From NCBI GenBank assembly GCA_973895155.1, contig OZ316895.1, positions 6,620,084 to 6,684,083 on the forward strand: DNA of 64,000 nt, in the 5' to 3' direction. Every line of letters begins with the position of its first letter. Positions within the stretch are counted from its first letter, which is position 1. The notes beneath the pieces are model-generated. The model was not told where the DNA came from. It made no database searches and worked only from the letters and a program-made list of their open reading frames with translations. Positions 9,636 through 62,425 of the stretch are shown piece by piece. A program made the position numbers and the translations under genes. Origin of the DNA: Marsupella aquatica (taxonomy: Eukaryota > Plantae > Marchantiophyta).

Positions 9636-9646
9636 GCCTGCGCATG

Positions 9647-39174: not shown

Positions 39175-39750
39175 TTGTCTATTTAATTATTATAGGGTTG
39201 AATACAAAAAAGATTGACACGCACCAGGGTGCATGACCTACAATCATAGTAAGTACCACCCTTTAATTAGTTAGTTTCTTTACAACAATTAATAGGATTG
39301 TTGTATATTACAATGTCTACTGGACATTCATTTGAATGTCAATAATATCATGCCTTAATATCACCAAACTAAGGCCCCACTAACTAATATTATATCTTAA
39401 ATAAACTAACCAACTAACTAACTTGTCTATTTAATTACTATAGGGTTGAATACAAAAAATATTGACACGCACAGGGTGCGTGACCTACAATCATAGTATC
39501 ACCCTTTAATTAGTTAGTTTCTATTGCTTTGACTCAATCAGGCATGGAACCATATAAAATCAGAAATCATTGAAAGTTGAGTTCACTTGAAGGTGTAACT
39601 ATAATTATAATTTATTAATAGGATTGTTGTATATTACAATGTCTACTCGACATTCATTTGATTGTCAATAATATCATGCCTTAATATCACCAAACTAAGG
39701 CCCCACTAACTAATATTATATCTTAAATAAACTAACCAACTAACTAACTT
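39175..39750. repeat. Local duplication of 250-320 bp downstream of the transposase stop
   Basis: ttgtctatttaatta...tgacctacaatcatagta and ttaataggattgttg...aactaaccaactaactaactt each occur twice. Confidence 0.75.
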
Positions 39751-39844
39751 AGACAATAAGACTTGTCTAAACTTGAGTTCTCTGGCTACTACTATTCTGA
39801 GTTGCCTTTTAAACTGTATGCTAAACTACATGCTTCATTAGTGT

Positions 39845-42800
39845 CTAGGATTTGTCACTTGCTATGCATGTCAAGAGATATTCTCTTGCCTTGGTAGCAA
39901 CATTCTTTGGAATTCCTACCAGCCCTGTCACTGGTCCTTTGCGTGCTTTGAAACACCACAAGGTAGAGGAAACATCTATTGTCTCAGCTTCCTTGTATAT
40001 TGGAGCTGGATCACGTTCCCATTTCTTATCCCAAGAATCTGCCCACCGCTCTCTTGGCTGCCAGTCTGATTGACCACGTTGCTTCTTTGCCATAAATGGT
40101 CTAAACCACTCAATGCCACATACATGAGTAAGAAGGTTTTGTTCATTCACTGGCCCTTCTACCACATCTGTAACAACTAACCCCATATGGACGGGATAAA
40201 CATCCAGGTCTGAGTCGTCCAGCCGTACCAACACATAACAGCCCTTCACAACATCAACCCTAGGGTTAAAACTCTCAGAAAGTTTATCTTTTGCTGGTCC
40301 CACATAATTCACTGTTGCCTCCAACTCACATGCCACATTTTGATATTCTGGTGGAACGTGCTCTCTCCATATTGATAAAGGCCAAAACCCGTATTCCAAA
40401 TTGTGTGCACCTTCAGGTTCATATTGCACCTGCTCACCCTGTAGAGTATCTACAATGTCATTCCAATAATTGATGAGAGTTGTCCAACGTCGCCTTGGTT
40501 CTTCCTCTTTTGTTTGCTTTAGAATAAACTCAAAGAATGACACATGCTTCTTCAACCCTGTCAGCACTTCAGGAAGCATTTTCAACTCCATCATTGGTAG
40601 CCGTTTGGGCACCCCAATTGGGATGTGAGGACTTTTGTCATCTTTCCATGACCACATTTCAATACCTTCCTTGGGTAACCATCCCTGATCAGTTGATTTC
40701 ATTTTGTATTGGAAGCATGGCATACTATCATGACGAACATAGAACCTAAACAGCCTGGGTTTTAAATGCCCCACCAATGCCTCAGGGCCCTTCAACATGA
40801 ATGGAGCTAAGTAGTTTTTGAAATCTGGGACCTCCTGTAGAAAATGTGGGACTGCATTGGGTGTCCTTGCTCTCATGAACAAGGACATTAACTCAAGCAA
40901 TGAGTATGTGGGGTTATGCATCATAGACTCTGAAAAATGCCCGAACATACCGTCAACGTCCTCATGAGTATGCCCAACCACCATGAAACCAAGATGAACC
41001 TCTTCAAACACCTCCCTTGCTGTCAACAATGACAAATAAGCCATCATATATCTGTTCTTGTTGTCTGAGGCACAATTATCCAGGCACAATTATCCAGTTG
41101 TAGCTTCAATACTCGTGGAAGGGGCCTGAACTTTGGTGCCTCAGTTGCTGCATCACAATGTAACAATCTCAAAATGCTTTTAAATAAAACCCTAGTCAGA
41201 CCCTAAACCCTATTAATGAAACCTTGGCTAGGAGGAGCAACAACTACACAAAGTAGAGTGTCAGTGTGTGTGAGCTTATATTATTAAATAATAATAAATT
41301 AAAGGATTGTGAGTAAAGTACCTAGGCTTGAGATGTAGGCAATATCATCCTCAAATGCTCTAAGGACACTTGCCTCCAAGATATCTTTTCTCCCAAAAAG
41401 GAGGTCTTTAAAAAGACTTGTCGAGTCTGGCCCCTCCACAAGTGATTTGATCATTGGATTTGGGTTTTCCAACATCCTTAGTATTGAATCAATTGACCCA
41501 ATAGTGATGTTGACATCACCTGGCCACACTCCAACATGATATTGGGCTATGGCCTTGGGACCATGACCATGAGTAAGGATACCAGTGACAGTAATTGAGA
41601 ACTTTTGGGCACCATCCACATGCTTAGGATTGAAGGGCATTCTTGGGAGAGCTGTCTTTGAATGATCCATCTTATCATGAATAAGGCATAACACTTCCTT
41701 TGGACGATGGATGGACTCATATCTCCAAGTATGATAGCACATTCTTTGTTGTGTGTGGTCTTGGTGATGTTCCTCCTCGTCACGCCTTAGGCCCTCTAAC
41801 TCTTCCTTAGCTCCTGTAAGGTTTGCTTTCCGTTGAAGCAACTCACTACAAGTTGTACACTTTGAAAAGTTGTTGCCCTTTTTGTGACGCAAGAACTCCC
41901 TGAAATACATCTGATGTAGATGACTCAAGGTGGGTTGGGAAATTGGAGGAAGACCAGCCTCCTTGTTGACAACATTAACCCTGTTTCTAATATTCTCCCA
42001 AGTAAGATTTGTTGGCAATTCCCTCAAAACCATCCTTGTATTATCTGCCATGGTTCTCAACTTGGCTGGATGATGATCAGCTGCCTCCCTCAATAATCTC
42101 TTTCATTGACATGAACGCTTGAGATACTTTCTCGGACATACACCTTTTTCCAGCATTACCATGGGTACCTATGTTCATTCCAGACATCACAGTCTTCTTC
42201 AAGGCATAAAATTGAGTCTTTCCTCTTGAATGAATGATTCTCCATGCCTCCAAGCACAATACTTTGCCCTCCACTGCTAGAATCCTTTCTCCAGTACCCA
42301 AGTGTATTGTATTTTTAATAGCCTTGATTTCCACCTCCTTGCGCTCCGCAAAAGATTTTGACCACCACTTTTGCCTAATTGCCATAGCCAAGTTGCGGTC
42401 CAAATATTGGCAACAATGTTCACTACAACAGTCCTTAGTGTTTATCAACAACACATCTTGACGTGCCAAAGATGTGTCTCTTCTAGATGTCTGGGAAGAT
42501 GGACTCTTTCTTTTCCTACTTTTATGGACGTAGGACCGCTTGCCACTTGTTGGAGATGTGTTCCCTCCCACAGCTTGCCTGATGTTGTGGAAAGACAACA
42601 AGTTGCCATCCTTGGCAATGAGTTGGTCCCCCGGTTGGTCCATCGACCAAGCTTTTAAGCAATCTCTATGCTTCAGATGATCTATGGTAGCTCCCTCGAC
42701 AAAATCGTTGATCAGAATTCCTACATGTGTATTCCCAAGGGTGACATCCCCAAGCTTCACTATAGGATCTAGAACATGTATAGTTGCCACTGCAAAAATC

Positions 42801-43245
42801 AACTTGTTCTCATCCACCACCTTTACAGGCATGCCCATCCACAAGGCCTTTGGTAAAACTACTTCCACACCAGACCAACTCTCATTAATATGGTTGTTCC
42901 CATCAGAAATTTGATTGACTGGATCTTGATCATCACCAACAGTGCCAAACACATCCTCTGATTCCATGGGAGCTCGAAAAGCTGATTCCTTTCCCATACA
43001 AGGTAACCCCCAATCATGTCCTTCAAAAGTTTGCCATCTTTGCATAGAATGGTCTCGTCAAAAACTTCCTCCAATAGAAGAAGAACTCTGTCCGCCCCAA
43101 GAGGAACATTGTGACAAACCCTAGAAGGATCAAGACTTATCACGCGACCTTTTCCAACTTGTTTCTCACGTATGCCTATAATAACTTGTCCGCCTTCCCT
43201 GATCCAGACTGTCGATGTCACCATAATAATTATGATCCTACACAT
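39845..43245 (-). pseudogene. DUF7869/Sola1-like DDD transposase with N-terminal Tnp1/En-Spm-like domains; disrupted by frameshifts
   Basis: CCSEHCC...LCLEAWRII...TQFY...HGNAG; FSKCTTC; CLIHDKMDHSKTALP; LPRVLKLQLDNCASDNKNRY; FMVVGHTHEDVDGMFG; intron starting at about 41321; frameshifts near 43000, 42085 and 41080. Confidence 0.8.
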
Positions 43246-43849
43246 CAGAGAATATCACTGTAAGCGTACAGTCCTGTCACGTCCGTCAACTTCACTGCAC
43301 TGTCCTATCACGTTGGTCAATAAGCAGAATGTAGTCAATGCACTGCACTGCACTGCACGCGACTGGTTGCGTGACCCTAGAGGTACCACACATACCGGCA
43401 ACAGACTATGCATGGTCCGTCAATCATTTCAAGTGAATGAGAACGACCACAATTGATTACGATCAATCATTTCACATCCACTCAGAACAAATGAGTGGAC
43501 AGTACCAGTTTGCCAATGAGTGGACACTGGACAGTCAGTAACTACTGAGGATTGTAATTCTAATAAGCGCCAGTAAAACATCCGTGAACTGCATTGTCCT
43601 GTCACGACCGTCAACAAGTAAGCAGAATGTAGTCAATGCACTACCCTGCATGCGACTAGTCGCGTGACCTTAGTCAGAGGGTGTAGGGATAATAGGGTCT
43701 ACGACGTAGAAGCTAGAAGCCTAGGCCCAAACTCTAGCTCGTACTTGGTACTTCATAAGTAAGATACAATTGCGCGTGAGACAGTAAGATACAATTACGG
43801 ATCTGAAGGCATCACACATACCGGTAACAGATTATGGATGGTCCGTTAG

Positions 43850-44218
43850 TCATTTCAAGTGAGACTCATTTCGGATCGGTTTAATAGGATTTCCTGGGAA
43901 AGCCAAATCTAATAAACTAAACTTGATTACACCCAGAAGATAGGTATTCCCAACAAGGTGGCGCCATCTACGACACACCGAAGATAGTCCTACAAACTCA
44001 TCCAATTCCTTTATTGAGAAATTTCCTGCATTAGCCGAGGAATTCAATGACTCCTTGATCCGAGGCCATATCAATTCTGCGACAATCAAATCTGGAAGTC
44101 CAGGTAGTAGTGTTTCAACAAATACAGAATATCTTGCCAGTAGACCATCTTGGCTTCTGTCCAAAACGTCAAATATTGGGCATAGATATCTGAAGCTCTC
44201 TAGACCAGGTTCCCCCAT
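43850..44218 (-). CDS. F-box-like ORF or exon upstream of the transposase
   Basis: LLPGLPDLIVAELIWPRI...LSSVCRRWRHLV, an F-box with an internal insertion, paralogous to those at 51.8-52.9 kb. Confidence 0.6.
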   Translation of the reverse strand: MGEPGLESFRYLCPIFDVLDRSQDGLLARYSVFVETLLPGLPDLIVAELIWPRIKESLNSSANAGNFSIKELDEFVGLSSVCRRWRHLVGNTYLLGVIKFSLLDLAFPGNPIKPIRNESHLK

Positions 44219-44362
44219 GACTCTTTTCAGCCAAATGATATATCCCAGGGATGATTTTCACGCGACTGGTCGCGTCTACAAATCAGAATGTATAAACAAT
44301 TCTTTGGGAGATTGTGGTTTTTTTGGGTCACAACGTGACAAATCATAAATGTTGCTTCGTCC

Positions 44363-45810
44363 TCTAACAGAACCAGTCAATGAGATAGCTACCTCAAACG
44401 CGACTGGTCCGTCAACTGATCCTAAATAGAACGTTACCTTCTCTAACAGAACCAGTCAATGAGAGAGCTACCTCAGACGCGACTGGTCGCGTCACCTGAT
44501 CCTAAATGGAACGTTACCTCCTCTAACAGAACCAGTCAATGAGAGATCTACATCAGACGCGACCAGTCGTGTCAACTGAACATAAACAACTATATCCACT
44601 GAACCTTCCTTGTGGAGATTTGGATATGGTACGCGCTCAATAATCTATCCTGTTTCCTTCTCACACGCAACTGGTCGCGTCAACTGATCCCAAATGGAAC
44701 CTTACCTCCTCTAACAAAACCAGTCAATGAGAGAGCTACCTCAGACGCGACTGGTCGCGTCAACTGATCCTAAATGGAACATTACCTCCTCTAACAAAAC
44801 CAGTCAATGAGAGCTCTACCTCAAACGCGACTAGTCGCGTCAACTAAACCTAAACAACTATATCCACTGAACCTTCCTTGTGGAGATTTGGATATGGTAC
44901 GCGCTCAATAATCTATCCTGTTTCCTTCTCACACGCAACTGGTCGCGTCAACTGATCCCAAATGGAACCTTACCTCCTCTAACAAAACCAGTCAATGAGA
45001 GAGCTACCTCAGATGCGACTGGTCGCGTCAACTGATCCTAAATGGAACATTACCTCCTCTAACAAAACCAGTCAATGAGAGCTCTACCTCAAACGCGACT
45101 AGTCGCGTCAACTAAACCTAAACAACTATATCCACTGAACCTTCCTTGTGGAGATTTGGATATGGTACGCGCTCAATAATCTATCCTGTTTCCTTCTCAC
45201 ACGCAACTGGTCGCGTCAACTGATCCCAAATGGAACCTTACCTCCTCTAACAAAACCAGTCAATGAGAGAGCTACCTCAGACGCGACTGGTCGCGTCAAC
45301 TGATCCTAAATGGAACATTACCTCCTCTAACAAAACCAGTCAATGAGAGCTCTACCTCAAACGCGACTAGTCGCGTCAACTAAACCTAAACAACTATATC
45401 CACTGAACCTTCCTTGTGGAGATTTGGATATGGTACGTGCTCAGTAAATCTATCCTTTTTTCTTCTCACACGCGACTGATCGCATCAATTGATCATAAAA
45501 GGAACCTTAACTCCTCTAACAGAACCATTCAATGAGAGAGCTACCTTAGACGCGACTAGTCGCGTCAACTGAACCTAAACAACTATATCCACTGAACCTT
45601 CCTTGTGGAGATTTGGATATGGTACGCGCTGAGTAAATCTATCCTGTTTCCTTCTCACACGCGATTGGTCGCGTCAACTGGTCCTAAAAGGAACCTTACC
45701 TCCTCTAACAGAACCAGTCAATGAGAGAGCTACCTCAGACGCGACTGGTCGCGTCAACTGATCCTAAATGGAACCTCACAATCTTCTCACGCGACTGGTC
45801 GCGTCAACAG
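44363..45810. repeat. Tandem array 1: 268-bp higher-order unit (80+80+108 bp subunits), one ACGCG-N6-CGCGT motif per subunit
   Basis: aacaactatatccact recurs at 44585, 44853, 45121, 45389 (period 268) and 45578; about 17 motif copies such as acgcgactggtcgcgt and acgcgactagtcgcgt. Confidence 0.95.
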
Positions 45811-48379
45811 CTTAAACAACTTTTGGACACTAGGATAATACAGTGATACCACTGTGATTACTGACCCGTACGGACAAGAAAATCCGAGTAAGCATGATTT
45901 CATTCAATTTGTATTCATTCATTTGTATTCATTCATGAACTTTACAATAATTCAGATGTTTGAGCTCTGTCATTGTGAAACTATTATATATCACAAGTTT
46001 TCATATTGCAAGGAATTCAGTTTAGAGAATGATTCAGCTAAGATGATTCAATTTAGCAGTCTATTGGTTGTATTCGTCAATTAAAGGATTCAGTGTAATG
46101 AGATTCACATAACATGAGAGTTTATATGATTAAATTCACAACGTGCAGGTTTGTAATGACTTACTTAAGACGATTCAGGTTGTATTTTAATTAGTGAGTT
46201 TGTATGATTCAGACATATTTGAGTTTATAGACAAACTGCATTATGAAAACTCAGTTTAACAATCAAGAGAAATTTTAGCAAACAACAATCAACACTAGCA
46301 GAAAATGTAGAAATTGCACCTGAATTCTGAAAAATTGATGTAATCGTCTGAGAGATTGATGTCCAAGCACCTGAAGACCTTGCTGCGGCATTCCAGAAAG
46401 TAAATATAAGATTGAAGATATTAATATGCTAAGCAACAACAACACAACTTCTATATCTTCTATACATAGAGCTTCGCTGCTGCCAATTGAATAACATGTG
46501 CTTAATGCTAAGGAACTCATTATGTCGAGTTAAAAAGACTCTTCCAGAAGTACAATCAAAGTTGTCGATAGACAAACTGAGCATGAATAAAAGCGCACTA
46601 AACCTGAAGATTGAAAAAGTTGAAACAAACCTGAATGATGAATTAAAGGAGCTGAAACAAGCTGCCAAAAAGTAGTTCAAGCTGCTAAAACATGTTGATC
46701 GAGCTGATATGAGCTTAAAATTGGCTGACACAAGTTGATACGAGCACTCCCAAAAAACTAGCTGCAATGAACCCAACGAGCTCCTAAGAATCCCTTCAAG
46801 CAAACTAGAAGTGAATACGAGCTCTAAATGCGAGCTGCAACGCACCAACGAGCTCCTGGTCAAAACGATCAACAACTACTAAGAGCTGCAACGCGCCGAC
46901 AAGCACCTGACCACAACGAACGAGCTGCAACAACGAAAATGAAATCCAGGGCAGGAGCGAGAGCGACGAGAGCAGGCGTGCGAAAGTCTAGGGAGCGAGA
47001 AACAACAACAATGAACAGTGAACTCGAGACCGTGGGCGCCGACACTAAGGAAGGACTAATTAGGGTATCGTTTTAGAATAACCCTAATAACAGCCTAGTG
47101 ACAAGAAGGTTCCAGATGATCTCCGTACACTCCACCATCGACTCAACAAACTATGCAATCGTAAAAAAAATATTACCGAAATCCTTTTGATTTGCCGTAC
47201 TAAAGGAGATTTATATTTGATCGCCAATTTGAAATTTAAACCGGTAATTATGCAACTACAAAAGATTGTTAGTGGGGACCCCCGGATCCGGATCCGTATC
47301 TTCACGATATCTGCCAATTCAAATCCAAAATGTGAACGAACGACAACTTTCTCACGATCGTTCCATCACGTAGTGGAGGCGAACTTCAACATCATTCCAT
47401 TTTGGTAGTGGAGACCGTCGGATCCGGATCCGTACTCCACTCTCTATCTTGCCAATTCAAACCCAAACTCTAAACAACGTAAAACAATTGAACTCACGGT
47501 CGGGGAGAACCGATATTCAAAATCAATCCTATACAATGATTCTCACGACTGGAGACTCAACCAATTTTCAAAATCAAAATCGAGTCCAGATGAACACATC
47601 TTTCATGGAGTCAATAGACTGATCTCACTGCTCACGGATCATTCTTCATTTTCAGTTTCTACTGACCAAGATACTAGCTGGGCTCTCACTGGAGGCTGAT
47701 CCAAGGCACATTTGAGGTGGAGCAGATTGGATCATTCGACTATTCCAGTCGGAGGCGGAGCTCATTCAAGCAACGCTGGCGCAGTTCTTGTTGTATCACC
47801 TTCTTGGGGAGGGCACATCCGATCAACCGGGAGAGAGTTGCGACGAAGTGAGACGACAAAGATTTAGAACCTCCATAGTCTGCCTCATTCACCGAAGCAT
47901 TCTAGCAGACCAACAAAGAGCGGCTATTCTGAAATCACTGTCTGGCTGAGGATTTTGATCTCGATATGATCAACAAGTTGTCATTCTCTGGTGGTGGGAT
48001 TCGGTCACGATACTCAAGGAAATTGGAGTTCAAAGGAGGAGGCTTAGTTGGCTGGGACGAGGAGGAGGCTACGCTAGAAGGAAGAGGCTTGGCTGGGAGG
48101 AGGGTTGCCGCCAACATCGTTGAGACCACACGCAACTGAACAACTTGTAAGTATCAATCAACATTAATTCCGCAATAAATGAGGAGAGTAGTTGCCTTAA
48201 TTCACGCATTCAATGCATGAATTGAGTCAATGAAGTTATGGTCCAATTTCTCACTCCGATTTTGATCAATCCGTGTTTCAAGTCCAATACAGAAGCAATG
48301 TATCAGAAGTACTAGTAGAGGATCCGAATGAATTCTCTAGTCTAAAATTGTATGGCGTTCAATTATAGTTGTCCGTACA

Positions 48380-50430
48380 TTTTGGTATTGTTTATTGTAG
48401 TCGACGGCCTAGCGAAACGAAACATAATCGAGGTCCATTTCTCAGATCAAACTGATCTCAACTTGTTAGTAGGATGACTTGTTTTTTTGGTTACACATGT
48501 AGTTCATCACGCGCACAGTCACGTGAACCAATTTATCTTAGGTCTTTTGATATTGTTTATTGTAGTCGATAGCCTAGCAAATTGGCCAGCAATCTATTCT
48601 AAAACCCAAGTCTTCGTATCATCACGCGCCCGGTCGCGTTAATGTTTTAGAGGTTAGCAAAAGCTCTGCACTCTTAGACATAATCGCCCTTTATTTCTCA
48701 GATCTGCCTGATCTCAACTTGTTAGTAGGATGACCTGATTTTTTGGTTACACATGTAGTTTATCACGCGCACAGTCGCATGAACCAATTTATCTCGTATC
48801 TTTTGATATTGTTTATTGTAGTCGACAGCCTAGCGAATTGACCAGCAATCTATTTTAAAACCAAGGTCTTCGTATCATCACGCACCCGGTCGCGTTAATG
48901 TTTTAGAGGTCAGCGAAAGCTCTGCACTCTTAGACGTAATCGCCCTTTATTTCTCAGATCTGCCTGATCTCGACTTGTTAGTAGGATGATCTGATTTTTT
49001 GGTTACACATGTAGTTCATCACGCGCACAGTCGCGTGAACCAATTTATAACGTGTCTTTTGATATTGTTTATTGTAGTCGACAGCCTAGCGAATTGGCCA
49101 GCAATCTATTTTAAAACCAAGGTCTTCGTTTCATCATGCGCCCGGTCGCGTTATTAGAGGTCAGCAAAAGCTCTACACTCTTAGACGTAATCGCCCTTTA
49201 TTTCTCAAATCTGCTTGATCTCAACTTGTTAGTAGGATGACTTGTTTTTTTGGTTACACATGTAGTTCATCACGCGCACAGTCACGTGAACCAATTTATC
49301 TTAGGTCTTTTGATATTGTTTATTGTAGTCGATAGCCTAGCGAATTGGCCAGCAATCTATTCTAAAACCCAAGTCTTCGTATCATCATGCACCCGCTCGC
49401 GTTAATGTTTTAGAGGTTAGCAAAAGCTCTGCACTCTTAGACATAATCGCCCTTTATTTCTCAGATCTGCCTGATCTCAACTTGTTAGTAGGATGACCTG
49501 ATTTTTTGGTTACACATGTAGTTTATCATGCGCACAGTCGCATGAACCAATTTATCTCGTATCTTTTGATATTGTTTATTGTAGTCGATAGCCTAGCGAA
49601 TTGACCAGCAATCTATTTTAAAACCAAGGTCTTCGTATCATCACGCGCCCGGTCGCGTTAATGTTTTAGAGGTCAGCGAAAGCTCTGCACTCTTAGACGT
49701 AATTGCCCTTTATTTCTTAGATCTGCCTGATCTCAACTTGTTAGTAGGATGATCTGATTTTTTGGTTACACATGTAGTTCATCACGCGCACAGTCGTGTG
49801 AACCAATTTATAACGTGTCTTTTGATATTGTTTATTGTAGTCGACAGCCTAGCGAATTGGCCAGCAATCTATTTTAAAACCGAGGTCTTCGTTTCATCAT
49901 GCGCCCGATCGCGTTATTAGAGGTCAGCAAAAGCTCTACACTCTTAGACGTAATCGCCCTTTATTTCTCAAATTTGCCTGATCTCTTGAACTTGTTAGTA
50001 GGATGACTTGTTTTTTTGGTTACACATGTAGTTCGTCACGCGCACAGTCGCGTGAACCAATTTATCTTAGGTCTTTTGATATTGTTTATTTTTGTCGACA
50101 GCCTAGCGAATTGGCCAGCAATCTATTATGAAACCAAAGTCTTTGTATCATCACGCGCCCGGTTGCGTTAATGTTTTAGAGGTCAGCGAAAGCTCTGCAC
50201 TCTTAAACGTAATTGTGCTTTATTTCTCAGATCTGACTGATCTCAACTTGTTAGTTGGATGACCTGTTTTTTCGGTTACACATGTAGTTCATCACGCGCA
50301 CAGTCGCGTGAACCAATTTATCTCAAGTCTTTTGATATTGTTTATTGTAGTCGACAGCCTAGCAAATCTATTTTAAAACCAACATCTTTGTTTCATCACG
50401 CGCCCAGTCGCATTAATGTTTTAGAGGTCA
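48380..50430. repeat. Tandem array 2: about 8 units of ~256 bp with a 3-unit higher-order duplication, two ACGCG-N6-CGCGT motifs per unit
   Basis: acttgttagt recurs at 48461, 48717, 48973, 49224, 49480, 49736, 49990, 50246; motifs acgcgcacagtcgcgt and acgcgcccggtcgcgt. Confidence 0.95.
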
Positions 50431-50679
50431 GAGGAATCTCATGGATGATTTTTCCTTGATTGAAAAAATGGTTACATCGATCCCGAAGGACTTCGGATGT
50501 GGAATCCATATCCACTAGCGCTATCGAGGAATTTAACTGACCTGGTCTTTCGAACACTATTTTCCACGGGACAAAATTAAGCTACACAGTATCTATAACA
50601 AGTTCTAACTTGAACTACTCTTAAATCTGTAGTTCTAATCTTTGACTACTCAAAATATTGTAGACTTTGATCGAGTCAG

Positions 50680-51114
50680 TCATTCCAAGATGAAGGTGTC
50701 TGGTGTGGATTCCTTTGAATCCAGGAATTCTTCTTTTGCCCAAGTCCTAACGTCCATAGATTTTCTCGGCTTGCTCTTTCTGTAATACAAATCAGAATCT
50801 TCGTTCATCTCTAATTGCCTTTTCTTCGGTGCGTCCACTTTCTTGGCCTCCTTCTTGACTGTCTTAGCGTCTGCTGCTGGTTCCCCCAAAATGGATTTTA
50901 CGCATGCTTTGGCCTTCAACTTCTCCCCCCCCAAAATGGATTCGACGAGGGCTTTGCCCTTTAACTTCTCCCCTGATGCCATCTTTGTAGTCATCTCTGT
51001 CGGATTGCTCTCCATCTGATCTTCCATCAACAAATGTGGCGAACAATGTCGTCTCTCACAAAACATTTGACCCGATTTAGTCACCGTAAATATTATATTA
51101 CATCGCTGACACAT
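50680..51114 (-). CDS. Possible small Lys-rich protein of unknown function inside the element
   Basis: 144-aa ORF with internal duplication GEKLKGKALVESILG/GEKLKAKACVKSILG; no recognisable domain; real start more likely near 51025. Confidence 0.3.
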   Translation of the reverse strand: MCQRCNIIFTVTKSGQMFCERRHCSPHLLMEDQMESNPTEMTTKMASGEKLKGKALVESILGGEKLKAKACVKSILGEPAADAKTVKKEAKKVDAPKKRQLEMNEDSDLYYRKSKPRKSMDVRTWAKEEFLDSKESTPDTFILE

Positions 51115-51798
51115 TCTGTAAGGAGTACCACGAATTTAATATGTCGAATCTTTTGAATCGTTCGTCGGAACATCCTCATTCTTCGAGCTCAGCGAAGTAG
51201 TCATCGCCCTTCAAACAAGAGATGCGGACCAAGACTAAGAATTGGAAATGAGAGAGCTGATGTGCGAATAGATTATCCAGTAGCCAGAAAGTGGAAGGCG
51301 TGGGGGAATGAGCAGTAGGGATCATCTCAATGCTTTATACTATTTAGTCTCCACTAGTCATTGTACATAGTGGTTTCTAGAAGAGAGTGCGCGTTTGACT
51401 GGCGCGTATTAGAATTGGCGGGAAGTTCAGTTGTCCTCTAATTATAGCTTTAATTTCATGTTTGGCGACCGCCCCGGTAATATTGATTGCTAGTGAAGTA
51501 CTGAGATTGCTTATGAGGGTCAATAGTTACTGACTGTCCGGTGTCCACTCATTGGTAAACTGGTACTGTCCACTCATTTTTCTGAGTGGAGTTGAAATGA
51601 TTGTTGGTAATCGATTGTAGTCGTTCTCATTCTCTCATCGTCAGTTCAAAGTTTCTTCCAGAAATACCCAAGAATTAAATTTATGGGGTCAATGTCCATA
51701 GATCTTAGGGAACTCTTAGAGATCTTAGAGATCTTAACTTACGCGACCGGGCGCGTCATATGTCTTCTAACAATGTTTTGTGATATGATAAAAGCAGG

Positions 51799-52926
51799 AT
51801 GAGCCAACTTTTGAATGAGGCTTGAGATTTCCTTTCATCTCATGAAAGAAAACAGAAAACAATATGGGATACGCTGGATGAAACCTCCTCTAGTCTCATT
51901 GGAGGAATACCAGATGTTTTGGTCATTTCAAACATTTGGCCAATACTCTACAAACACTTTATTTCAATTGAAGGATTGCGTCGATATCGACACCCCGATA
52001 ACAATTTGGTTATCGATAGGGTCCAAGACCTTATTCGGCTTGGAGCTTGTAGCAAGAAGTGGAACTTTTTAGTTACAAATACAAGGTTATGGGCTATCCT
52101 CAAACAAGCAACCCGGATTGTCGATGACGCAAATAAAACACTTTACTACATACCCGAAACTGACGAGTTGGAGTTTGACTCATTCTGTCGAGTTATTCGA
52201 GAGGATATTTCTATGTTTCCAGAAATATATGTTCTTGGGACTACTACTTTTGATGAAATCGCATTGTTTATGAACAAATATAACTATTTAGATGAGGAAG
52301 AACGAGATGTTCTAATTGAAAGGTTTGGTAGATTTTCTTAGAATCTAGGTGGTCCCAGTTCGTAATGGATAGGTTCTTGTTCTTAATCTTTTCGATATTA
52401 TGTTGCAGTCCTTTGACATGAATCAAAAATCTCATCGTCAAATGATGATGGAGCGCATTGCACGTGCAAAGGTTATGAACCAAAACATGATATGGAGTCA
52501 AGCTGAAGACCTGATACCCGGTCTTCCGGATGATATTGTCGAGAAATATATTTGGCCATTAGTCAAAGAGTTTTTCCACTCTCTTGGGAATTTGTCGGAT
52601 AATGCGATTAAAAATCGGGTCATGGACTTGATCGCCATTTGAACAGTCAGTAAGAAGTGGTGCCACATAGTTACTTATAGTAGTACTTGGGGGATGGTCA
52701 CCTTGGTAGCTTACAACTTCACTGATAGACCAGGATATGAATCGCTTCGAAGAAATTTGACTTCACGGAGTGTAGCATTCAGATTTACAGAATCCATCAG
52801 AACTCTCCTGCCACTGGACATTCTGGGTGGATTTGAAGGATCTGAACTTGACACGTTTAGGAACCTTTGGTTTTGGTTAGATGAAGATGAGCGAAAGGAT
52901 TGGGTCAGGATAAATGTTCCTAAAAT
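51799..52926 (+). pseudogene. Two tandem F-box-like modules, probably 5' exons of the large cargo gene
   Basis: LIGGIPDVLVISNIWPIL...LGACSKKWNFLV and LIPGLPDDIVEKYIWPLV...I*TVSKKWCHIV; TGA stops at 51823 and 52640; phase-2 donor AT|GTAATC (52927) fits acceptor CAG|A ATG (53003) in frame. Confidence 0.65.
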
Positions 52927-53003
52927 GTAATCGGCATGACGCGACCATGCGCGTGTTAGTATTTTATAATAAATGTTTAACTTTCAATATTTGTCTATTT
53001 CAG

Positions 53004-56000
53004 AATGGATCCTACCAGAACTTCAAAGCAAAAAAGAGACTCGTCTAAAGCTGCTTCTCGTAAGAAAGCCAAGACAAAAATGACTCCCGCGGAGACATCC
53101 ATACTTGCATATCGAGGAAAGTCAATCAGAGAGAGAACAATGGAGACAAAGAGTATCCATCTCTTTGATTCGACTGAGATATCCGATTTTGGAATAGTCG
53201 TTCGCAATGGGGCTGTCCGTCTTGTGGTGGCAAAAAATGATAAAGCTACAGTTTTGGAGAGATCACAAATTCTTGGGTGTTTCTTTGAGAAGAACATGAA
53301 AGTTAAAGAGTGTACGGAGGGATTGGTTCTGCTAGTCAACGACGACCAGCAGGAGGACAAAATAAGCATTTGTTTGGATCGAACGCAATATGTAACCTTC
53401 AATCAGCCCAGAATCGATGATCTTCTAGGTGCAAGGCACTCCTTGGAAAAGGTTACTAGTGTGGGATATCCTTCCGATCCAAAGGGATCAACGGGCTCAG
53501 ATTTGATTTGTCAATACATTATTGACATACTTGAGTTCCAGAGAGTTCCTTTCAACCAGGGATTTTGCTTGGGAAAGGCCCCCCTAGTGACCAAGGTTGA
53601 AGTATACTCGGCGGAGAATCTTCCAAAAGTAATTACCTCAGCGAATGTCGGGGCTCTATTCGATTCTTTCCTCAAAGAATATAGTGTTGTGAATATATTT
53701 AAAAGCAAGTCATTTTTTGTTGAGACATCACGTTGTCATCTTGCACCGGACCATATCAAGTGCCGAGAGTGGAATCATGATTACACAGATAGGCTAAAGA
53801 ATTCACTCCTCTCTCATTCGGCTATAAAGTTTGAAAAGCGATGCTGCTTTTTAGTCCCTGTGAAGTGGGTTCAGTCGGAGGCCGACAGAGATCCCGACTA
53901 CAATGGGACGCCCTACGATTCGGCGCCAACAGAGGAGGACACTATGACCAGTCATTTTTGGATACTCGGAGGCCAGCACACAATAATGGCGTACAAATTG
54001 CTAAAAAAGGTTGACAAAGTCAGCCAAGTTGTACGAGACGCATGCGGTATTGTAGAAGCTGTAATGTTTTGGGCAACGCTCAACAACGACAATAATGTTC
54101 ATTTGATGGGACTATTGAAGGCTCTGCACCACTGTCATCAAACATCAATGGAAGAAGGACAATTTCTCACCATTGTACGACAGTGTCATAATATCTGGAA
54201 CTCATTTGGGCGGCCTGGATCACATTATCGTCATCCAAATTGGAAGGTATGTAAATAACCCTCTTCGATCACATTATCGTTTAAAATTTTGTCACGCAAA
54301 CTGGCCAGTCAATCTTAGAATTTTTCTCACGCAAACGGTCACGTCAATCTTAGAATTGTCATGTTTCCATTATTGTTCAGGTATTTATGAGAGCTACAAG
54401 TTTTATTTGCCCATGGGCTCAAATGGGGAAGAACGAAATGATGAAATTTGGAGAATTGGCTCCGTTTCTCTTTACAATGGAGGACGAAACATTCAAGAAG
54501 TGGATGGAGGTCTACGAACTATCAAGGACAGGAGAGCTTGTAATTTACAACGGAATTTTACAGATGGACGCCATCAAAATTGTGGATAATCCCTGTGCTT
54601 ATCATCTTATGAAGAAAACATTCCGTTCTTGTCAAGGGTGCTCGGACTCGGTTCTTCGAAAGGCAACGGAATATATGTTGAGCGGAAGACTGTCTATACT
54701 CAAAAACCGAAGCATCAAAGTGAAATCTGGGAAGGCGAGGAAGTCCTCTAAGGCTCCGGTGTTGTCAACGACCAGCATGAGTTTGGAGCAATTTTGTATA
54801 AAGAAGAAGACAAAAGTTGAGTTTGAGATTTTATTATTGAGTAAACTCAACGGGGATACATCCACCCGGACGGAGCTAAAAAGTCTGATAGATTCAGCGC
54901 GGAAATTGCGGGTCAAAGGAATGATTGATCGCTTTAAGCTCGACAAGATGGTGCTGAAGCAGTTGAGAGATGCGCTTAGTGGTTATTTGAAGAAGTGCTT
55001 AAATGTAAATATTAGTAATGATAATTTGTTGAAAGAGATCGACCCAATATTCCACAGGTTGGTGGAAGGAATACAGAAATCAGTTGATAGTCAAGGAAAC
55101 CAACTAGTGCGGCCGGTCGGTGAGAGGCTGAAATTACGATCCCTGCAGGATATACAAAATGTTGGGTTTGCTGACTATACCATACGTGAAGACAAGAACC
55201 TTGCGAGCTTGATTTATTTTGATTCCTCATCAATGGGAGATTTGCGTCCGCCCAATTGCCCATTCTATGAGGGGTTATTTCATGCTATTAGCGAGATAGG
55301 GGCAAAACCACACCATGTGGTTATTATTGTAGCCTCTCCCGTTGAGTCTTATTTAATCAAACGAGTATTAGGGAAGTACACACACTACGTTGCTGTCGAT
55401 AGCCATTATATTCAGAAGCGGCCGAAGGAGAAGAAGCTTATTGTAACCTACGCTTTTCACAGCTTGGCCTTCAGCACAATGGGCGATACACAAGCCCTCG
55501 AGTTCCAATTGGTCTCCAAATATCGGATTGAGAAGATAGCCAATTTTAAAGAGAGCGACGAGTACACAACACCTTCCCCAGAAAAGATACTTCCATTCTT
55601 TGAAAGTATTGTTAGTCAATTCGTCCAATGTGGGGAATGGGCTATATGCTTCGGCGAGGGAACCAACTTGATCCAGTGCTTAATGGTAAGTTTTGAGATT
55701 TATATTTTGGGGTTTCAATTTTAAGATTATTTAGATTTTTATATTCTCAATTAATATTGTGAACTAATTTTGGCTTTTTTTACAGGATGCTGGATCCAAT
55801 GTAAAATATTACTGCCCTGTGGCAATGCATAGGGAGTTGTCTTGTTTCTTGCAACACACCACGGCGACAATTGATACAACGCTGTCATTGATTGACCCAG
55901 TACGGGCTAGTATAGAAAAATGTATAGATAAATTAATGAAGTACCGTCCATCTGTAACTGCTCTCAGGGCTGATGTTTTGGATGTCCTCCACGAACAACA

Positions 56001-56107
56001 TATCCCTGCTAATATTTGTAATCAATTATTGCAAGAGTATGCCCTCTCTGAAGATTCTGATCGATTGTACATTCGGCCAACGGAGTACCCTCGTGGGCCA
56101 ATCCAAG
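53004..56107 (+). CDS. Cargo gene exons encoding a ParB/Srx-like domain followed by a degenerate beta-class amino-methyltransferase-like fold (exons 53004-54246, 54381-55685, 55786-56107)
   Basis: Three open exons joined in frame by canonical GT-AG introns; ParB-like CREWNHDYTDRLKNSL...FWILGGQHTIMAY; MTase-like ASLIYFDSSS (DPPY position), PEKILPFFESIVSQFVQCGEWAICFGEGT (KP..L...G..VLDPFxGxGT position), then CLM|DAGSNV. Confidence 0.6.
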
Positions 56108-56235
56108 GTAGGTTACTTTTGAACCCTCTTACTTTTTCTTGTGTCACGCGAACATGCGCGTGGACATTCTTAACATTTCTTTTCATGCAAATATGTGCGT
56201 AAGTCATTCTTATCTAATGATCTGATTTTATTCAG

Positions 56236-57954
56236 ATCAAGTCGATTGCGGCTTCAATGTTGAGGATGCAAGGAGCAATGGTGATGCGGATGGTGAGGGG
56301 GAATGTGACGCGGATGGGGATGTTAATGACCAAGATCCAAAGTGGATGACCGATACGCAGAACGACGTCGGAGATTTCAACAATAGCAAGGAAGAGAGTG
56401 ACGGAGAAGAGATGAAGGACGCTGAGGACGTTGATGAAGAGGACGAGGACATGGAGGGTTCTGAGGACGCTGAGGACTCTGATGAAGAGGCCACACAGGA
56501 TCCTTGACATGAGGCGGACCGAGAGGAGGAGACCAGAGAGGAGTCGGCCCGGCAGGAGGACGCCCGGCAGGAGGCGGCCCGGCAAGAGGAGCTTCAAAAG
56601 AAGGAGGCAGCCCCGCAGGAGGAGGCCCGACAAGAGGCGGCCCGGCAAGAGGAGCTTCAAAAGAAGGAGGCGACCCAACAGGAGGAGGCCCAACAAGAGG
56701 CGGCCCGGCAAGAGGAGCTTCAAAAGAAGGAGGCAGCCCCGCAGGAGGAGGCCCGACAAGAGGCGGCCCGGCAAGAGGAGCTTCAAAAGAAGGAGGCGAC
56801 CCAGCAGGAGGAGGCCCAACAAGAGGCGGCCCGGCAAGAGGAGCTTCAAAAGAAGGAGGCGACCCGGCAGGAGGAGGCCCGACAAGAGGCGGCCCCGGCA
56901 GGAGGCGGCCTGGCAGGAGGCGGCCCGACAAGAGGCGGCTCGACAAGAGGAGCTTCAAAAGAAGGAGGCTAAGAAGAAAAAGGCGGCAGCTAGAAAAGCA
57001 ACTGCCGCAAAGAAGAAGGAAAAAGCCGACACTGAGAAAGCCCAGGCTGAGAGAGTCCTTTTAGTGACAAAGGCAAATAGGGCCAAGGCGGAGAGCGTGG
57101 CGGCTGAGAGGCTGCTGGCCGAGAGGATGGCGGACAAGATCGAACAAACCGCAAGACCGGAAAGGGTGGAGGCGGAGAAGTTGGAGGCGGAAAAGGTTGA
57201 TTCCGCAAGACTGGAGAGAGAAGAAGCCGCAAGACTGGAGAGGGTGGAGGCGGAGAAGGTGGAGGCAGAGAGGAAGGAGGCCGAGAGGGCCGAGGATCTT
57301 TCGCTTATTCCTGAGGCACAACGTCTATCGAAAATAAAGCTGAAGTTGAAGAAGCCTTCTTCACCCTCAGTTGCAGTTAAGAAGAAAATATTAGACTAAT
57401 TTCTTCGCCCGGAGTTTGAATTTAACGATCCACCCTTAAGTACAGTCTCGTTGGAAGATTGGAATAAATATTCACCGGAGCAGCTTTGAGTCCAGGCTAT
57501 CCTTGCTTTGCAATATTGGAAGGGTCTTTTGATTACCTAGGAGAAAACTGCCACTACATCCAGAATGGAGACAATCATCAATAATGTCCGCTTTTCCGAG
57601 AATCGAGTGCAAGACCTGGGAACATCTTTGGCACCAGACTCGGCTCAAGTCGTTAAGAGACTAACATCTGACTTGATATGAGTGGGTTTGTGGTCTCGAC
57701 CCCGATATACTAGTACAGAGGTCACTCGCACAGAAATTGTGGCACCGGATATTTTGGAATCGAATTCCCAGATTGTGGAATATTTAAATCAAATGCCACA
57801 ACCATTCAAAGGTCTTCCTGCCTCATCACTCCAACCTTCACAAACTGGTCCGGTGGAGTGATCACTGCGGTCTCAAGGAGGGCTGAAGGATGTTGTTGCG
57901 AAGGAGGCACCCAAGAGATCAGCTGCAAAAAGGCCAGATCCACCCAATCCAAAG
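56236..57954 (+). pseudogene. Acidic and coiled-coil exon of the cargo gene, with a frameshift near 56893 and several in-frame stops
   Basis: Phase-1 splice G|AT continues into D/E-rich sequence, then EAARQEELQKKEA repeats; the track's Arg-rich 56431 ORF is the shifted frame until about 56895; stops at 57397, 57487, 57538, 57679, 57859. Confidence 0.65.
56571..56968 (+). repeat. Coding 63-bp (21-aa) minisatellite, 5-6 copies
   Basis: gaggcggcccggcaagaggagcttcaaaagaaggaggc... unit with alternating variants. Confidence 0.9.
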
Positions 57955-58105
57955 GTCATTCGCAAGCTATAAGCTTAAAGTTTCTATTATAGCCGTCATT
58001 ATTTTATTATTGATTTGTTATTGTTTCTGTTTTCTGAGGTAGAACCCTTAGGCTACAACCTCAGTACGTTATTTGAAGGCGTACTGAAATCTCTGTTTTT
58101 TGCAG

Positions 58106-58893
58106 TTTTTTGAAAATTTGGCTAGTCAAATAGATCAATGCCTTGATCCTTCTAAGGATATGGAAGAGCTATTGACCAAGTTCTTACAACACTCAATCAA
58201 GAGAAAACATATGATGTGTCTGAGACCGTGCGAGTTTCTCACCGATGATATAATTAATGTTTATTTGAGTTTTCTCAAACTGATTCTCGATAGAGTTGGA
58301 AAGTCAGACCTTGTCAAATTCTTCCAAACACACCATTTTGAGCTTCTCTCCATGGATCCTACCATTTTCGATGAGGAGAGAGCAGCTTGGACAAAGGAGT
58401 TTCCGCTAAAAATCAGTGAATACGACAAACTGGTCTTTCCAGTACACAATGTTGTGAAAGAATATTGGTCATTGGTAGTTGTGTATCCAAAGGAGAAATG
58501 GCTCGAGTACCTAGATTCTCTAGTTCATAATCGACAAAATCCTGGGGTGCTAGATATTGTTGGGAAGTATTACGCCAACGAAATTGGCTGGAGAACTGGT
58601 GTCAACTTGGATCTCTCAGGTTGGGAACGGATATATCGGAATGATATTCCTCACCAGAGTGACGACCACAGTTGTGGTGTGTTTATCTTGAGATACGCCA
58701 AGTGCTTGTGTCAAGGAAACAAAATTAATTTTGCCACAGATCAAATTGAGAAATTCCGTAGGGAGATAGTCTTGTCGTTATTTGACATGGACTTCCGCAA
58801 GCCGACGTCCGCAATAACCTAGTTATCGGGATCCATGCTGCTATGATTGACATTTCTGGCGGAATTCCAGCACTGAACGACCATCTTGTACAG
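58106..58893 (+). pseudogene. Ulp1/peptidase C48 SUMO-protease exon; catalytic His position reads Tyr
   Basis: LRPCEFLTDDIINVYL, LVFPVHNVVKEYWSLVVV, YLDSL, IPHQSDDHSCGVFILRYA; acceptor TGCAG at 58105, donor CAG|GTAATA at 58894; frameshift near 58810. Confidence 0.88.
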
Positions 58894-58979
58894 GTAATAC
58901 ACTTCATTTCAGTGTCTCTTTTTGTAGTCACGCGACCGTTCGCGTTATAAACTTATTTTCATTTCTTAATGTTTCACAG

Positions 58980-59885
58980 AAGCCAATCCCGAAACCCCCT
59001 GATCGAGTATCGAAGGCACCAGTCCGGAAGTCCGGTGATCGTCCGGAGGCGGGAAAAAAACAGACCGTTCTAGTACGTTCTCCAAACCCTACGGCACAAA
59101 AATCACAGGTACAGATGGCGCCTAATCCATTGGCAAAGAAGTCACCGGTTCAGAAGAGACTTGTAATTTTCGATCTGAATCGGGTACTTATCTGGTCAGA
59201 AAAGATCAGCCCTGGGATGCCCATTCGGTCAAGGGGTGTGAGACAGATGCACAAGGTTATCTATCCAAGGCCTGATTTAATGGAATTTCTTGAGAAGGTG
59301 GCAGATCTATACGACATTGCGATCTGGTCGTGCATGTTCAAACGGAATATTCTATCTTGTGTAAGGCTGATACTTTGACCCGAAGTTTTGAAACGTATTA
59401 AATTTATATGGGGACAAGAATCAACTCGACCTATTGGGAAGAATAATAATGACATCCCCTTATTTTTCAAATGTCTCTCCGACATTGCCGCCGATATTAA
59501 AGATTACAACATCGAGAATGTCATTCTTATCGATGATGCTGCATATAAGACAAGCCTTAATAACTTCTATTCATCGCTGTATCCCGATGCATATTCTGGG
59601 CTCGATGATGACCTATTTTTTAGAAAGAAACTATATCCATATCTATGCGACATGTCAATTGACAAGTTGACATTCCGCGAGCTCCTTAGTGGATATGGGA
59701 TTCCAACGTTCTCTCAAGAAAATCTTGAGAGAGATTATATTGATAAGACGAATCTTTGGAGGAGAAATGTGATCATTCGTAATTAGGGGAATAAAGACCA
59801 TTTAGCAAAGTTTGACGAATATATGAAATACTTATCTGCCGAAAAAGACCGTGCTATAGAAGCCCAGGATAAGTCCGATAAGTAA
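58980..59885 (+). pseudogene. FCP1/NIF-like HAD phosphatase domain 1, with two in-frame stops
   Basis: KRLVIFDLNRVL, IYPRPDLMEFL, YDIAIWS, FIWGQE, PLFFKCL, ENVILIDDAAYK; acceptor CACAG at 58979; stops at 59376 and 59784. Confidence 0.8.
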
Positions 59886-60009
59886 ACGTTTATTATCAAT
59901 TATTATTTATAAATTGATTGAAATTGAACTTTATATTTTGGGAGTGACGCGCCCGGTCGCGTGGTTGTTTGCAATTGCATAATATGAGAATCGAATTGTT
60001 CATTTACAG

Positions 60010-60714
60010 GTGTCTAAGTGGAGCAGGTCGCGTCAACTTCTAGTTTTAGGACTGGAAAACTTCCTGTGCTCTGTTTCAAAATATACTCCTCAGTTCAAGT
60101 TGACACCCGGAATTCGTATCGGATCTCTATGTGTCGTTCCGAGGCCGCATCTTCATGATCTTATAAAATTATGTTATGATCATTTTGATGTGATGGTCTG
60201 GTCTATTCTCGACGATAAATTGGTTTATCAGATACTTTCAGAAGTGTTGTCGAGCGACCTGTCGCAGCTGATATATGTGTTCACGCGGGATTATTGCTGG
60301 AATCTTGGTTATGTGAAGAAAAATTATAAGACTGTTGTCTTCAAATCTATTGAGAGACTACGTGATATGTTTCAAGATTATCGACTAGAGAATATAATCC
60401 AGATTGATGCCTGTCCTTCCCATACATGCCAGACAACTGTATGCGGATTATTGTTCTCTAAGTCATTTCAAGGATCGTTGGATGATGTCGTTTTGAGGGA
60501 TGACCTCATTCCATATTTACGAAAGCTATCAGATTTAGGGCTTTGTCTTGCGTTCGCTAACAAGTTTGATTATCCCATCTGGTCGATTAGAAATCTACAT
60601 CGAGATTGGGATCTGAACGAGGATATATGGGAGCATCTGTACGTGCAGAGACATGCGGATCAAGTTCTTATCAAGCACTTCAATAGACGTCACTTATCAA
60701 TGGCCAGAGTGTAG
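60010..60714 (+). CDS. FCP1/NIF-like domain 2, catalytic DxDxT motif degenerate
   Basis: LLVLGLENFL, PRPHLHDLIKLCYDHFDVMVWS, VVFKSI, ENIIQID; preceded by acceptor TTTACAG at 60009. Confidence 0.75.
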   Translation: MSKWSRSRQLLVLGLENFLCSVSKYTPQFKLTPGIRIGSLCVVPRPHLHDLIKLCYDHFDVMVWSILDDKLVYQILSEVLSSDLSQLIYVFTRDYCWNLGYVKKNYKTVVFKSIERLRDMFQDYRLENIIQIDACPSHTCQTTVCGLLFSKSFQGSLDDVVLRDDLIPYLRKLSDLGLCLAFANKFDYPIWSIRNLHRDWDLNEDIWEHLYVQRHADQVLIKHFNRRHLSMARV

Positions 60715-60800
60715 AGGATGTTGTCTCTATAATATGTGACGCGACCATTCACGTGACTACATCCATACGGGCTCATGCATCTTCTTGTGTTTCTCTACAG

Positions 60801-61472
60801 GAGATTCATTGCAGTAGAGAAAATGGGCTCATAGTTTTAGATGTGGAGCATCTACTCTGTTACACTGCACCGCATTCCCGACTGATGGCGGTCTCAACTG
60901 GAATTCGGATTGGGAATATACATGTTTTTCCAAGGCCTCATCTTCAGAAATTCTTGAGATTCTATTTTGAGAATTTCGATGTAGGGATCTGGTCCTCTCT
61001 TGGGAAGAACCTTTTAGATCAGATTTTAGCATCTATTTTTACTGCAATGGAAATGGCCTCATTTAAGTATATTTGGGATCAGTCTCATTGTTACTTATGC
61101 GATGGGCTGACATCAAATAAGCGGATATTTTTGAAGTGTTTTGAGAAGGCGTATCTGCAGCAAAATATAATGCTTATCAAATCCGATGCATTTCATGCTT
61201 GTTTAGATCCTGTTGTTGGATCATTATTTCCGCCCAAATATTTTGGGTCGGTTGACGACAGTTTCCTGATTAACTTGCTGATTCCGTATCTTAGCAAGCT
61301 AGCAAAATCTTGTGAGCCGCTTGTCATTGCCAATGGAAGAGATTATCCTGATTGGTCAGTTAAATCTATTTTTAGAGAGTATGATTATAATCATACTCTA
61401 TGGGAAGACCCTGTGATTCAGAGGCATGGAGATAGATATCTAGTAGAGCAATTTAACAGACTCCCAATTTAG
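60801..61472 (+). CDS. FCP1/NIF-like domain 3, catalytic motif degenerate
   Basis: LIVLDVEHLL, PRPHLQKFLRFYFENFDVGIWSS, YIWDQSHC; preceded by acceptor CTACAG at 60800; clearly paralogous to domain 2. Confidence 0.75.
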   Translation, partial: EIHCSRENGLIVLDVEHLLCYTAPHSRLMAVSTGIRIGNIHVFPRPHLQKFLRFYFENFDVGIWSSLGKNLLDQILASIFTAMEMASFKYIWDQSHCYLCDGLTSNKRIFLKCFEKAYLQQNIMLIKSDAFHACLDPVVGSLFPPKYFGSVDDSFLINLLIPYLSKLAKSCEPLVIANGRDYPDWSVKSIFREYDYNHTLWEDPVIQRHGDRYLVEQFNRLPI

Positions 61473-62289
61473 GACGCTTCCAAAATAATAGTCGGCATGA
61501 GATCAGATTAATTTGTATTGTCGTTCTAGAAACGATTTGTAAACTCCTTATATACTGGTTATCATATATAAAGGATCTTAGAGATTTATTTCTCTATTGT
61601 TATTATTCGCGTGAGCATGTGTCTTGGTCCCGTCAAGTTGGATTGGTTAAAATGTGATGTTGCAGTCATTTTCAGGGTTTCACGCACAGCCACGCGTCCT
61701 GTCGCCCCCTTTTTATTAAAATAATAATATTTAGTGATTTTCGGAATTTCCAAAGTTCGGTTTTCTTAAATTGGGGTTCTGAGCTTCAGAATATCATAAT
61801 GAAAAATCAAGTGAAGTTTTAAAGGAGTTTAGTTGGCCTTGACATTGATGCTACTGTTGAAGTGGCTCCTGATATTGGTGAACCAGGTGAAGAGCCAGCT
61901 CAACCCTCTTCTCTTGGGGCTGTACAATGTCTTGCAAGGATGAGACACATGGGACAGATTGTAAGAGAGTGAAAAAAATGTTAGTTTGTAGCTTATGTGA
62001 GACAACATCTGCTATTCATAGTTGATTAAAGTGAATCAAAGAGATCTGACTTGTTTGCTCAATGTGTTTCAAGCATACCCCAAACTGCAAATGTGAGGAG
62101 GAGTTATAAATTTCTGAAGTTTGCTCAATATTTGAGTAGTATATGAAAGGAGTTATAAGTTTCTGAAGTTTTCTCAATGCTTGAATGAGTAGTAAGTTTT
62201 GTAAATTGTAATCAAATATTGTGCACATTTTGAACTTTTTTTATAAGCAAATTTTAACTATTGTCCATTCTTTGTTTTTAACTTTAAGT

Positions 62290-62425
62290 ATGTGTGACAC
62301 TATTTGACTTGTGACCACAATTAGTGTCATACTATATTAGTGTCACACACCCTAATTATCGTCACTTACCTCAAATATAACCTCACAGTAATTAGAGTGT
62401 GTGAGACTAAATACTGTAAAGAGTG
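62290..62425 (-). repeat. Right subterminal repeats and right TIR
   Basis: gtgacacta at about 62294, tagtgtca at about 62322 and 62338, then TIR 62400-62425. Confidence 0.85.

Follow-up and report, generated by a model that had tools for sequence, protein, structure and literature searches.

A many-copy liverwort DNA transposon encodes a predicted ParB-fold protein and carries a repeated palindrome within a CpG-retaining zone

We analyzed 64,000 nucleotides of the liverwort Marsupella aquatica (contig OZ316895.1; hereafter "the window") and find that positions 38283-62425 comprise a 24.1-kb DNA transposon of the cut-and-paste type, which carries a ParB-like gene. Its left terminal inverted repeat (38283-38308, forward strand) starts with CAC, is preceded by TA, and agrees at 25 of 26 nucleotides with the right one (62400-62425, reverse strand), which is directly followed by TA. 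Position 62426 is the exact start of the flank match in two related contigs. The reverse strand carries a gene for a DDE-type transposase (DUF7869; 39848-43254; PF25273, E = 7.6e-31) that is broken in this copy, with frames disrupted near 41090 and 43057. The element thus has the 26-nt inverted ends, the TA on both flanks, and the DUF7869 transposase of a DNA transposon, and we take the CAC ends and 2-bp target duplication to point to the EnSpm/CMC type. These features support the initial annotation, which had placed the gene in a plant transposon. Of the first 27 matches looked up, two carry an organism name, both from the liverwort Calypogeia fissa, so that the host is likely of bryophyte type.

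All 30 bins between positions 43000 and 62700 are covered by four public runs, which come from two studies. In one public run, the depth of element contigs reaches ~830, compared with 10.9 for the contig that spans the right junction. This disparity indicates a many-copy family, contig depth not being a measure of copy number as such. The copy in the window is decaying: its transposase is broken, its ParB frame stops at 56505, and residues conserved in relatives are altered (at positions 371, 375, and 395, it deviates from a residue that relatives share in 12 of 13, 12 of 12, and 11 of 11 cases, respectively). A separate element nested at 43-62 kb is not favoured: no inverted ends were found at its borders, and no joint that spans it is among the 15 of 117 joints listed.

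Downstream of the ParB gene, cargo frames on the forward strand encode a Ulp1-type SUMO protease (58088-58819; PF02902, E = 6.9e-18) and three NIF/FCP1-like phosphatases (58851-61469; PF03031, E = 7.8e-6, 1.2e-10, and 9.7e-13). F-box-like frames lie upstream of the ParB gene (51826-52927, forward strand), and a similar frame lies on the reverse strand at 43853-44257; the PF12937 matches (E = 0.002 and 0.008) both fall below the curated cut-off. Near each of these sites is one arm of a 117-nt inverted duplication (43432-43548 and 51520-51635; 91% alike). This inverted block precedes both the transposase gene and the cargo genes, and the two putative promoters, which share it, face away from the two tandem arrays described below.

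The rest of the window also contains mobile DNA. A CACTA element on the reverse strand (3328-10887; Transposase_21, DUF4218, and DUF4216) is followed by BRCT (E = 6e-12) and NSD-type PHD-finger (E = 5e-5) frames, which by their domain matches are chromatin-reader cargo in a second transposon. Long inverted arms at 30002-35595, ~80% alike and 5 kb apart, suggest another element. A Copia-type reverse transcriptase remnant (16010-17911; RVT_2, E = 8e-19) is strongly CpG-depleted.

The ParB gene is predicted to have four exons, all on the forward strand. Exon 1 (53005-54246; 414 aa) encodes a basic N-terminus, a weakly PH-like beta domain, and then the ParB-fold domain. Exon 2 (54381-55685; 435 aa) encodes a helical middle followed, from ~55140, by a candidate amino-methyltransferase-like part, the end of which would lie in exon 3 (55786-56107; 107 aa), before further helices. 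An open spliced frame of about 950 aa had been proposed, and we do find that these three exons, with AG/GT borders, join to 956 stop-free codons. The motifs also lie where they had been placed: ILGGQHTIMA at 53962-53991, LIYFDSSS at 55209-55232, EK at 55581, FGEGT at 55650-55664, and DAGSNV from 55786. The predicted splicing is backed by a C. fissa gene model (P0023), in which exons 1 and 2 are joined at the same place. It is also backed by related but diverged copies, in which the match covers 55786/55793-56117 and ends in the introns, with exon 3 conserved. Past the third intron, the frame resumes at 56236 as an acidic tail (exon 4, 56236-57977), in which a 15/33-nt repeat encodes a charged coil; the window copy has a frameshift and several stops there. 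The frame ends at the TGA at 56505-56507. Beyond it, a protein-like charged repeat continues through 56508-57977, where the frame shifts and is interrupted by five further stops; through this stretch, the ParB gene may at one time have been joined to the Ulp1 and NIF frames in a single polyprotein.

The predicted protein belongs to a real family. Searched against 1.84 billion representatives, exon 1 has 26 relatives (E ≤ 0.001). Exon 2 has a single one (P0001), which is 51% identical; identities across the ParB gene family are 22-54%. We looked for longer fused relatives, and also for any relative of the C-terminal part, and found none in either case, although both tests are weak. The lone metagenome locus retrieved as a possible relative proved to match a bacterial gene in the wrong frame. 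No match to the protein was retrieved from viral contigs or phage records, and none that could be used from the protein atlas, where scores of 0.81 to polymerase fragments are at chance level.

The first half of the protein is predicted to have a ParB-like fold. The exon 1 model, folded with relatives, has a pLDDT of 80, and residues ~233-399 (nt 53701-54201) align with Myxococcus and Bacillus-type ParB over 113-116 residues (Z = 9.7; rmsd 2.5-2.6 Å). The best 12 of 998 aligned chains are all ParB, Noc, KorB, or PadC (Z = 8.2-9.7), while sulfiredoxins score Z = 4.9-6.2. Foldseek likewise places ParB, Noc, PadC, and sulfiredoxin in its top rows (probability 0.98-1.00 for the top 10; E = 0.007-0.03, none ≤0.001), and viral structural matches to the exon 1 model also point to ParB. 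The predicted model thus supports a ParB N-terminal fold in exon 1, as the initial annotation had supposed. Residues ~33-182 show a weak likeness to PH domains (Z ≤ 4.8). Pfam and PHROGs scans returned no significant ParB or methylase match (best, the ParB-like phrog_723, E = 0.19; DUF6551 in 2 of 26 relatives, E = 0.05), and PDB sequence searches returned only noise. Neither the Pfam scan nor the low-confidence exon 2 model (pLDDT 34) identified a helix-turn-helix or other DNA-binding domain in the protein, or the C-terminal dimer domain of ParB clamps.

In the ParB-like domain, the box I arginine is kept (R254; 9 of 10 relatives). The box III asparagine is present in 12 of 12 relatives but is His in the window copy. 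The P-motif GxxR arginine of ParB CTPase clamps is absent: with the register set by the motif, and with the one out-of-register row (P0004) excluded, this nucleotide-binding residue is replaced by Thr in eight of nine sequences and by Ser in the ninth. A ParB-style clamp-and-slide mode is therefore doubtful. In the available text of PMC12704722, loss of the GxxR arginine abolishes NTP binding in the ParB folds tested. There is nonetheless precedent for a nucleotide-free role: the accessible part of PMC13229309 describes activation of a DNA-modifying enzyme by a phage ParB, which functions without those nucleotide-binding residues.

The C-terminal half is harder to place. A methyltransferase-like fold had been proposed for it. 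The best local alignments follow the motif order and spacing that had been suggested, but the exon 2 model is unusable (pLDDT 34) and profile scores are at or near noise. The Foldseek list for exon 2 (HAD phosphatases and ATP synthase gamma) was given no weight because the underlying model is of low confidence. We compared the sequence with profiles of 30 stand-alone and 12 ParB-fused beta-class enzymes, dereplicated from 76 and 92 matches, respectively. The real score was equalled by 7 of 60 shuffles with the stand-alone profile, by 26 of 40 with the ParB-fused profile, and by 0 of 40 and then 7 of 150 with the merged profile (best P ~ 0.05); in an HMM test, it was equalled by 660 of 2000 and 887 of 2000 shuffles. 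Thus, no profile test is significant after three templates (P ~ 0.05-0.6). Mean pairwise z values are 1.7 for the window protein, -0.5 for P0001, and 1.55 for an unrelated control. The power of the profile method is low: tested on the ParB half with a profile of few phage ParB sequences, it failed to recover the match that structure supports (7 of 40 shuffles).

The best alignment sets EK...GEW...FGEGT on motifs X-I when the stand-alone or the merged profile is used, and the spacing from K to F is 22 in the window protein compared with 23 in 16 of 19 measured enzymes. The N-terminal half of the candidate part, aligned alone, lands on motifs V-VI (24 of 50 shuffles). In place of DPPY, motif IV reads DSSS in the window and DCSV in P0001, the Asp being kept in both; a D/S/E-P/A/I-P-Y/F motif is present in 36 of 42 comparison enzymes. 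The SAM-binding DPFxGxG is also replaced (CFGEGT in the window and CFSEGK in P0001), with the DPF of motif I gone from both. Because the alignments are in register and there is algal precedent, we consider it fairly likely that the C-terminal part descends from a methyltransferase of the kind that algal transposons carry as ParB-methyltransferase cargo. If it does, the domain is probably catalytically dead, a prediction of the initial annotation with which the motif IV residues of both sequences are compatible.

The element contains a repeated 16-bp palindrome, ACGCG-N6-CGCGT. There are 21 exact copies and 40 with up to one mismatch inside the element, and none in the other 40 kb of the window; spacers other than 6 gave no exact match, and 20 simulations produced no exact palindrome. 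This count is inflated because most copies lie in two tandem arrays: one of 80/188-nt units (44260-45804) with 17 palindromes at ≤1 mismatch, and one of 256-nt units (48422-50506) with 16 at ≤2 mismatches. Eight single palindromes, five of them exact, are spaced ~0.8-2.8 kb apart at 51741, 52939, 54329, 56146, 58930, 59947, 60739, and 61682. These sit in introns and in gaps between reading frames; the one at 60739 lies where a stop-to-stop frame begins. No palindrome occurs in the intron at 55686-55785, and none at ≤1 mismatch in the terminal 4.8 kb and 0.7 kb of the element. Near 57677, related copies have ACGCG-type letters where the window has none, which suggests that a further palindrome was lost from the window copy. 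Across 44 sites, 25 of 27 mismatches are C>T or G>A, which indicates that the sites have at some time been methylated. A 16-bp palindrome is also the usual site format of ParB and Noc.

The palindrome-bearing part of the element (43100-61900) coincides with a zone that retains CpG. The observed/expected (o/e) ratio is 0.85, measured over 13.1 kb of the zone with the arrays removed, compared with 0.24 in the left arm, which holds the transposase (38283-43100), and 0.10 in the right (61750-62425). At 43100 the o/e ratio rises from 0.23 to 0.83, and at 61900 it drops from 0.77 to 0.0; both borders fall within a few hundred bases of the outermost palindromes. The difference is also seen in coding sequence: codon-position 3-1 CpG occurs at 39 of 186 sites in the ParB exons and at 12 of 159 in the transposase (Fisher test, P = 4e-4). 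CpG scores of other transposons in the window are 0.08-0.34. A score of 0.85 is also seen at 21337-24303, where a pair of long frames of 190 and 537 aa have neither a Pfam match nor a repeated palindrome. CpG retention therefore has other causes as well, for example, recent capture from unmethylated DNA. The palindromes, the CpG pattern, and the lost ParB arginine did not feature in the initial annotation.

Considering these features together, we tentatively propose that the protein is a transposon accessory protein, with a predicted ParB fold and probably a dead amino-methyltransferase fold, that binds the element's own palindromes and keeps CpG methylation off the zone around them. It would be best read as a catalytically dead, putative site-binding anti-silencing protein, VANC-like in role. 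A dimer would bind the two-fold symmetric palindromes, both chemistries (nucleotide binding and methyl transfer) having presumably been lost, and its occupancy or the partners that it recruits would keep host CG methylation off the palindrome zone. Candidate helpers are the SUMO protease and CTD-phosphatase-like frames of the element. Both putative promoters lie in this zone and would then remain active. One point against protection is that the transposase gene, which the element needs most, is outside the CpG-retaining zone. A bolder version, which we regard as possible but doubtful, is that a pseudo-enzyme derived from bacterial ParB/parS, with both active sites lost, constitutes a second, independent anti-silencing system. 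In it, CGCG half-sites would be read by the dead methyltransferase, pairing or spreading of the protein would be the task of the ParB domain, and the sharply bounded 19-kb CpG zone would be the evolutionary footprint. If this version is true, it would be the first sequence evidence that the ParB cargo of eukaryotic transposons alters their methylation.

In the main alternative, the CpG contrast would have an origin unrelated to protection. There is some chance, though not a large one, that the protein binds the palindromes for transposition or transcription (looping, end pairing, or promoter regulation) and that the contrast marks cargo that is younger or from an unmethylated source. Palindrome-free, CpG-rich DNA in the same window fits such an origin, as do the host-type domains in the cargo (Ulp1, NIF, and F-box-like) and the deamination-type changes in the palindromes. 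An end-pairing factor, however, would be expected to have sites in the terminal segments, which have none at ≤1 mismatch. Furthermore, the ParB gene family is old, as its range of identities indicates, yet its exons retain CpG, and the CpG borders track the outermost sites closely. It is improbable that a different factor, be it the transposase, a second cargo product, or a protein of the host, binds the palindromes and that the ParB-fold protein has an unrelated role. The element does have several other frames, and no DNA-binding domain was identified in the ParB-fold protein, but the palindrome has the usual ParB/Noc format. Red-algal elements, as far as they are described, also have inverted-repeat arrays beside a ParB gene.

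The last alternative is that the C-terminal domain is an active, divergent enzyme that writes 4mC or 6mA around the palindromes, with 4mC blocking 5mC and so sparing CpG. The motif IV Asp is retained in both sequences, algal relatives are annotated as methylases in the accessible accounts, and the available text of bioRxiv 2021.02.12.428880 describes a working CG-directed 4mC enzyme in a liverwort. We nevertheless consider such activity unlikely: most of the comparison enzymes have a motif that reads DSSS or DCSV here, both sequences lack the DPF of motif I, and the methyltransferase fold is itself only a candidate.

The palindromes and the CpG pattern make the proposal of an anti-silencing accessory protein directly testable, and the CpG border predicts where protection should begin and end. 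The element belongs to a many-copy family, and working genetics are available in its plant lineage. A protein that spares 19 kb from CG methylation via a short site would also be a useful epigenetic tool. In the literature searched, outside which most subscription papers lay, we found no land-plant case, doubly degenerate version, or CpG footprint.

ParB-methyltransferase and ParB-plus-palindrome cargo is already reported from algal transposons. For this cargo, self-protection has only been proposed, and the element described here adds a defined 16-bp site. By its description in the accessible text of PMC12477816, Sola1-1_Ec32 of Ectocarpus is a giant DNA transposon of similar size (21.5 versus 24.1 kb) with a 1104-aa protein, similar in size to the one here, that is ParB-like and then an N4C/N6A methyltransferase. 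In both elements, the gene lies on the strand opposite the transposase, and self-binding and self-modification are proposed for the Ectocarpus element. The two differ in host and type, Sola1-1_Ec32 being a brown-algal Sola1 element with a 4-bp target site duplication and the present one a land-plant DUF7869 element with TA flanks. In addition, the Ectocarpus methylase is predicted to be active, whereas the window protein lacks the catalytic motifs, and that account, in its available part, gives neither a site nor a CpG footprint.

In Plavaka elements of red algae, ParB cargo lies next to arrays of inverted repeats, according to the available text of bioRxiv 10.1101/2025.02.11.637652. Among the cargo it describes, PAG2 and PAG3 of Bostrychia share with ours a ParB-like protein (best match 7BNR, which is also among the top matches here), tandem inverted-repeat arrays, and a giant EnSpm-type element; they include PF01555 methylase cargo, and self-modification is proposed. 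As described there, a 2OG oxygenase is the fusion partner of their ParB, and a gene of its own, with a SET domain, encodes the methylase. In the window, by contrast, the ParB and methylase-like parts are in one protein, both apparently degenerate, and the cargo includes Ulp1 and NIF.

To the extent that PMC12704722 and PMC13229309 are accessible, ParB/Noc/KorB clamps and phage ParB-N6_N4_Mtase fusions share with the window protein the fold predicted for its nucleotide-binding domain and the box I arginine; the box III asparagine of the clamps is shared with its relatives. The window protein differs from them in the replacement of the GxxR Arg by Thr or Ser, in that no helix-turn-helix was identified, in ~430 extra residues between the two domains, and in an extra N-terminal beta domain. 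Inactive methylase domains have also been noted in DIRS1 retrotransposons, according to the available part of PMC4738411.

A parallel in proposed role is VANC of the VANDAL elements of Arabidopsis, also a transposon accessory gene. In the accessible text of PMC5735166, VANC targets short motifs that occur in introns and have been amplified in tandem repeats, and CG sites are locally hypomethylated; the CpG pattern here would be the record of such a local loss. VANC motifs, as given there, are 8-9-nt non-palindromic words in Mutator-like elements; no homology between VANC and the window protein was seen. The available text of bioRxiv 10.1101/2025.02.11.637652 states that VANDAL elements are the only ones proven to bind and demethylate themselves. 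The function of VANC is thus proven in Arabidopsis, whereas the window protein, with its putative anti-silencing role, is likened to it by motif layout and CpG content.
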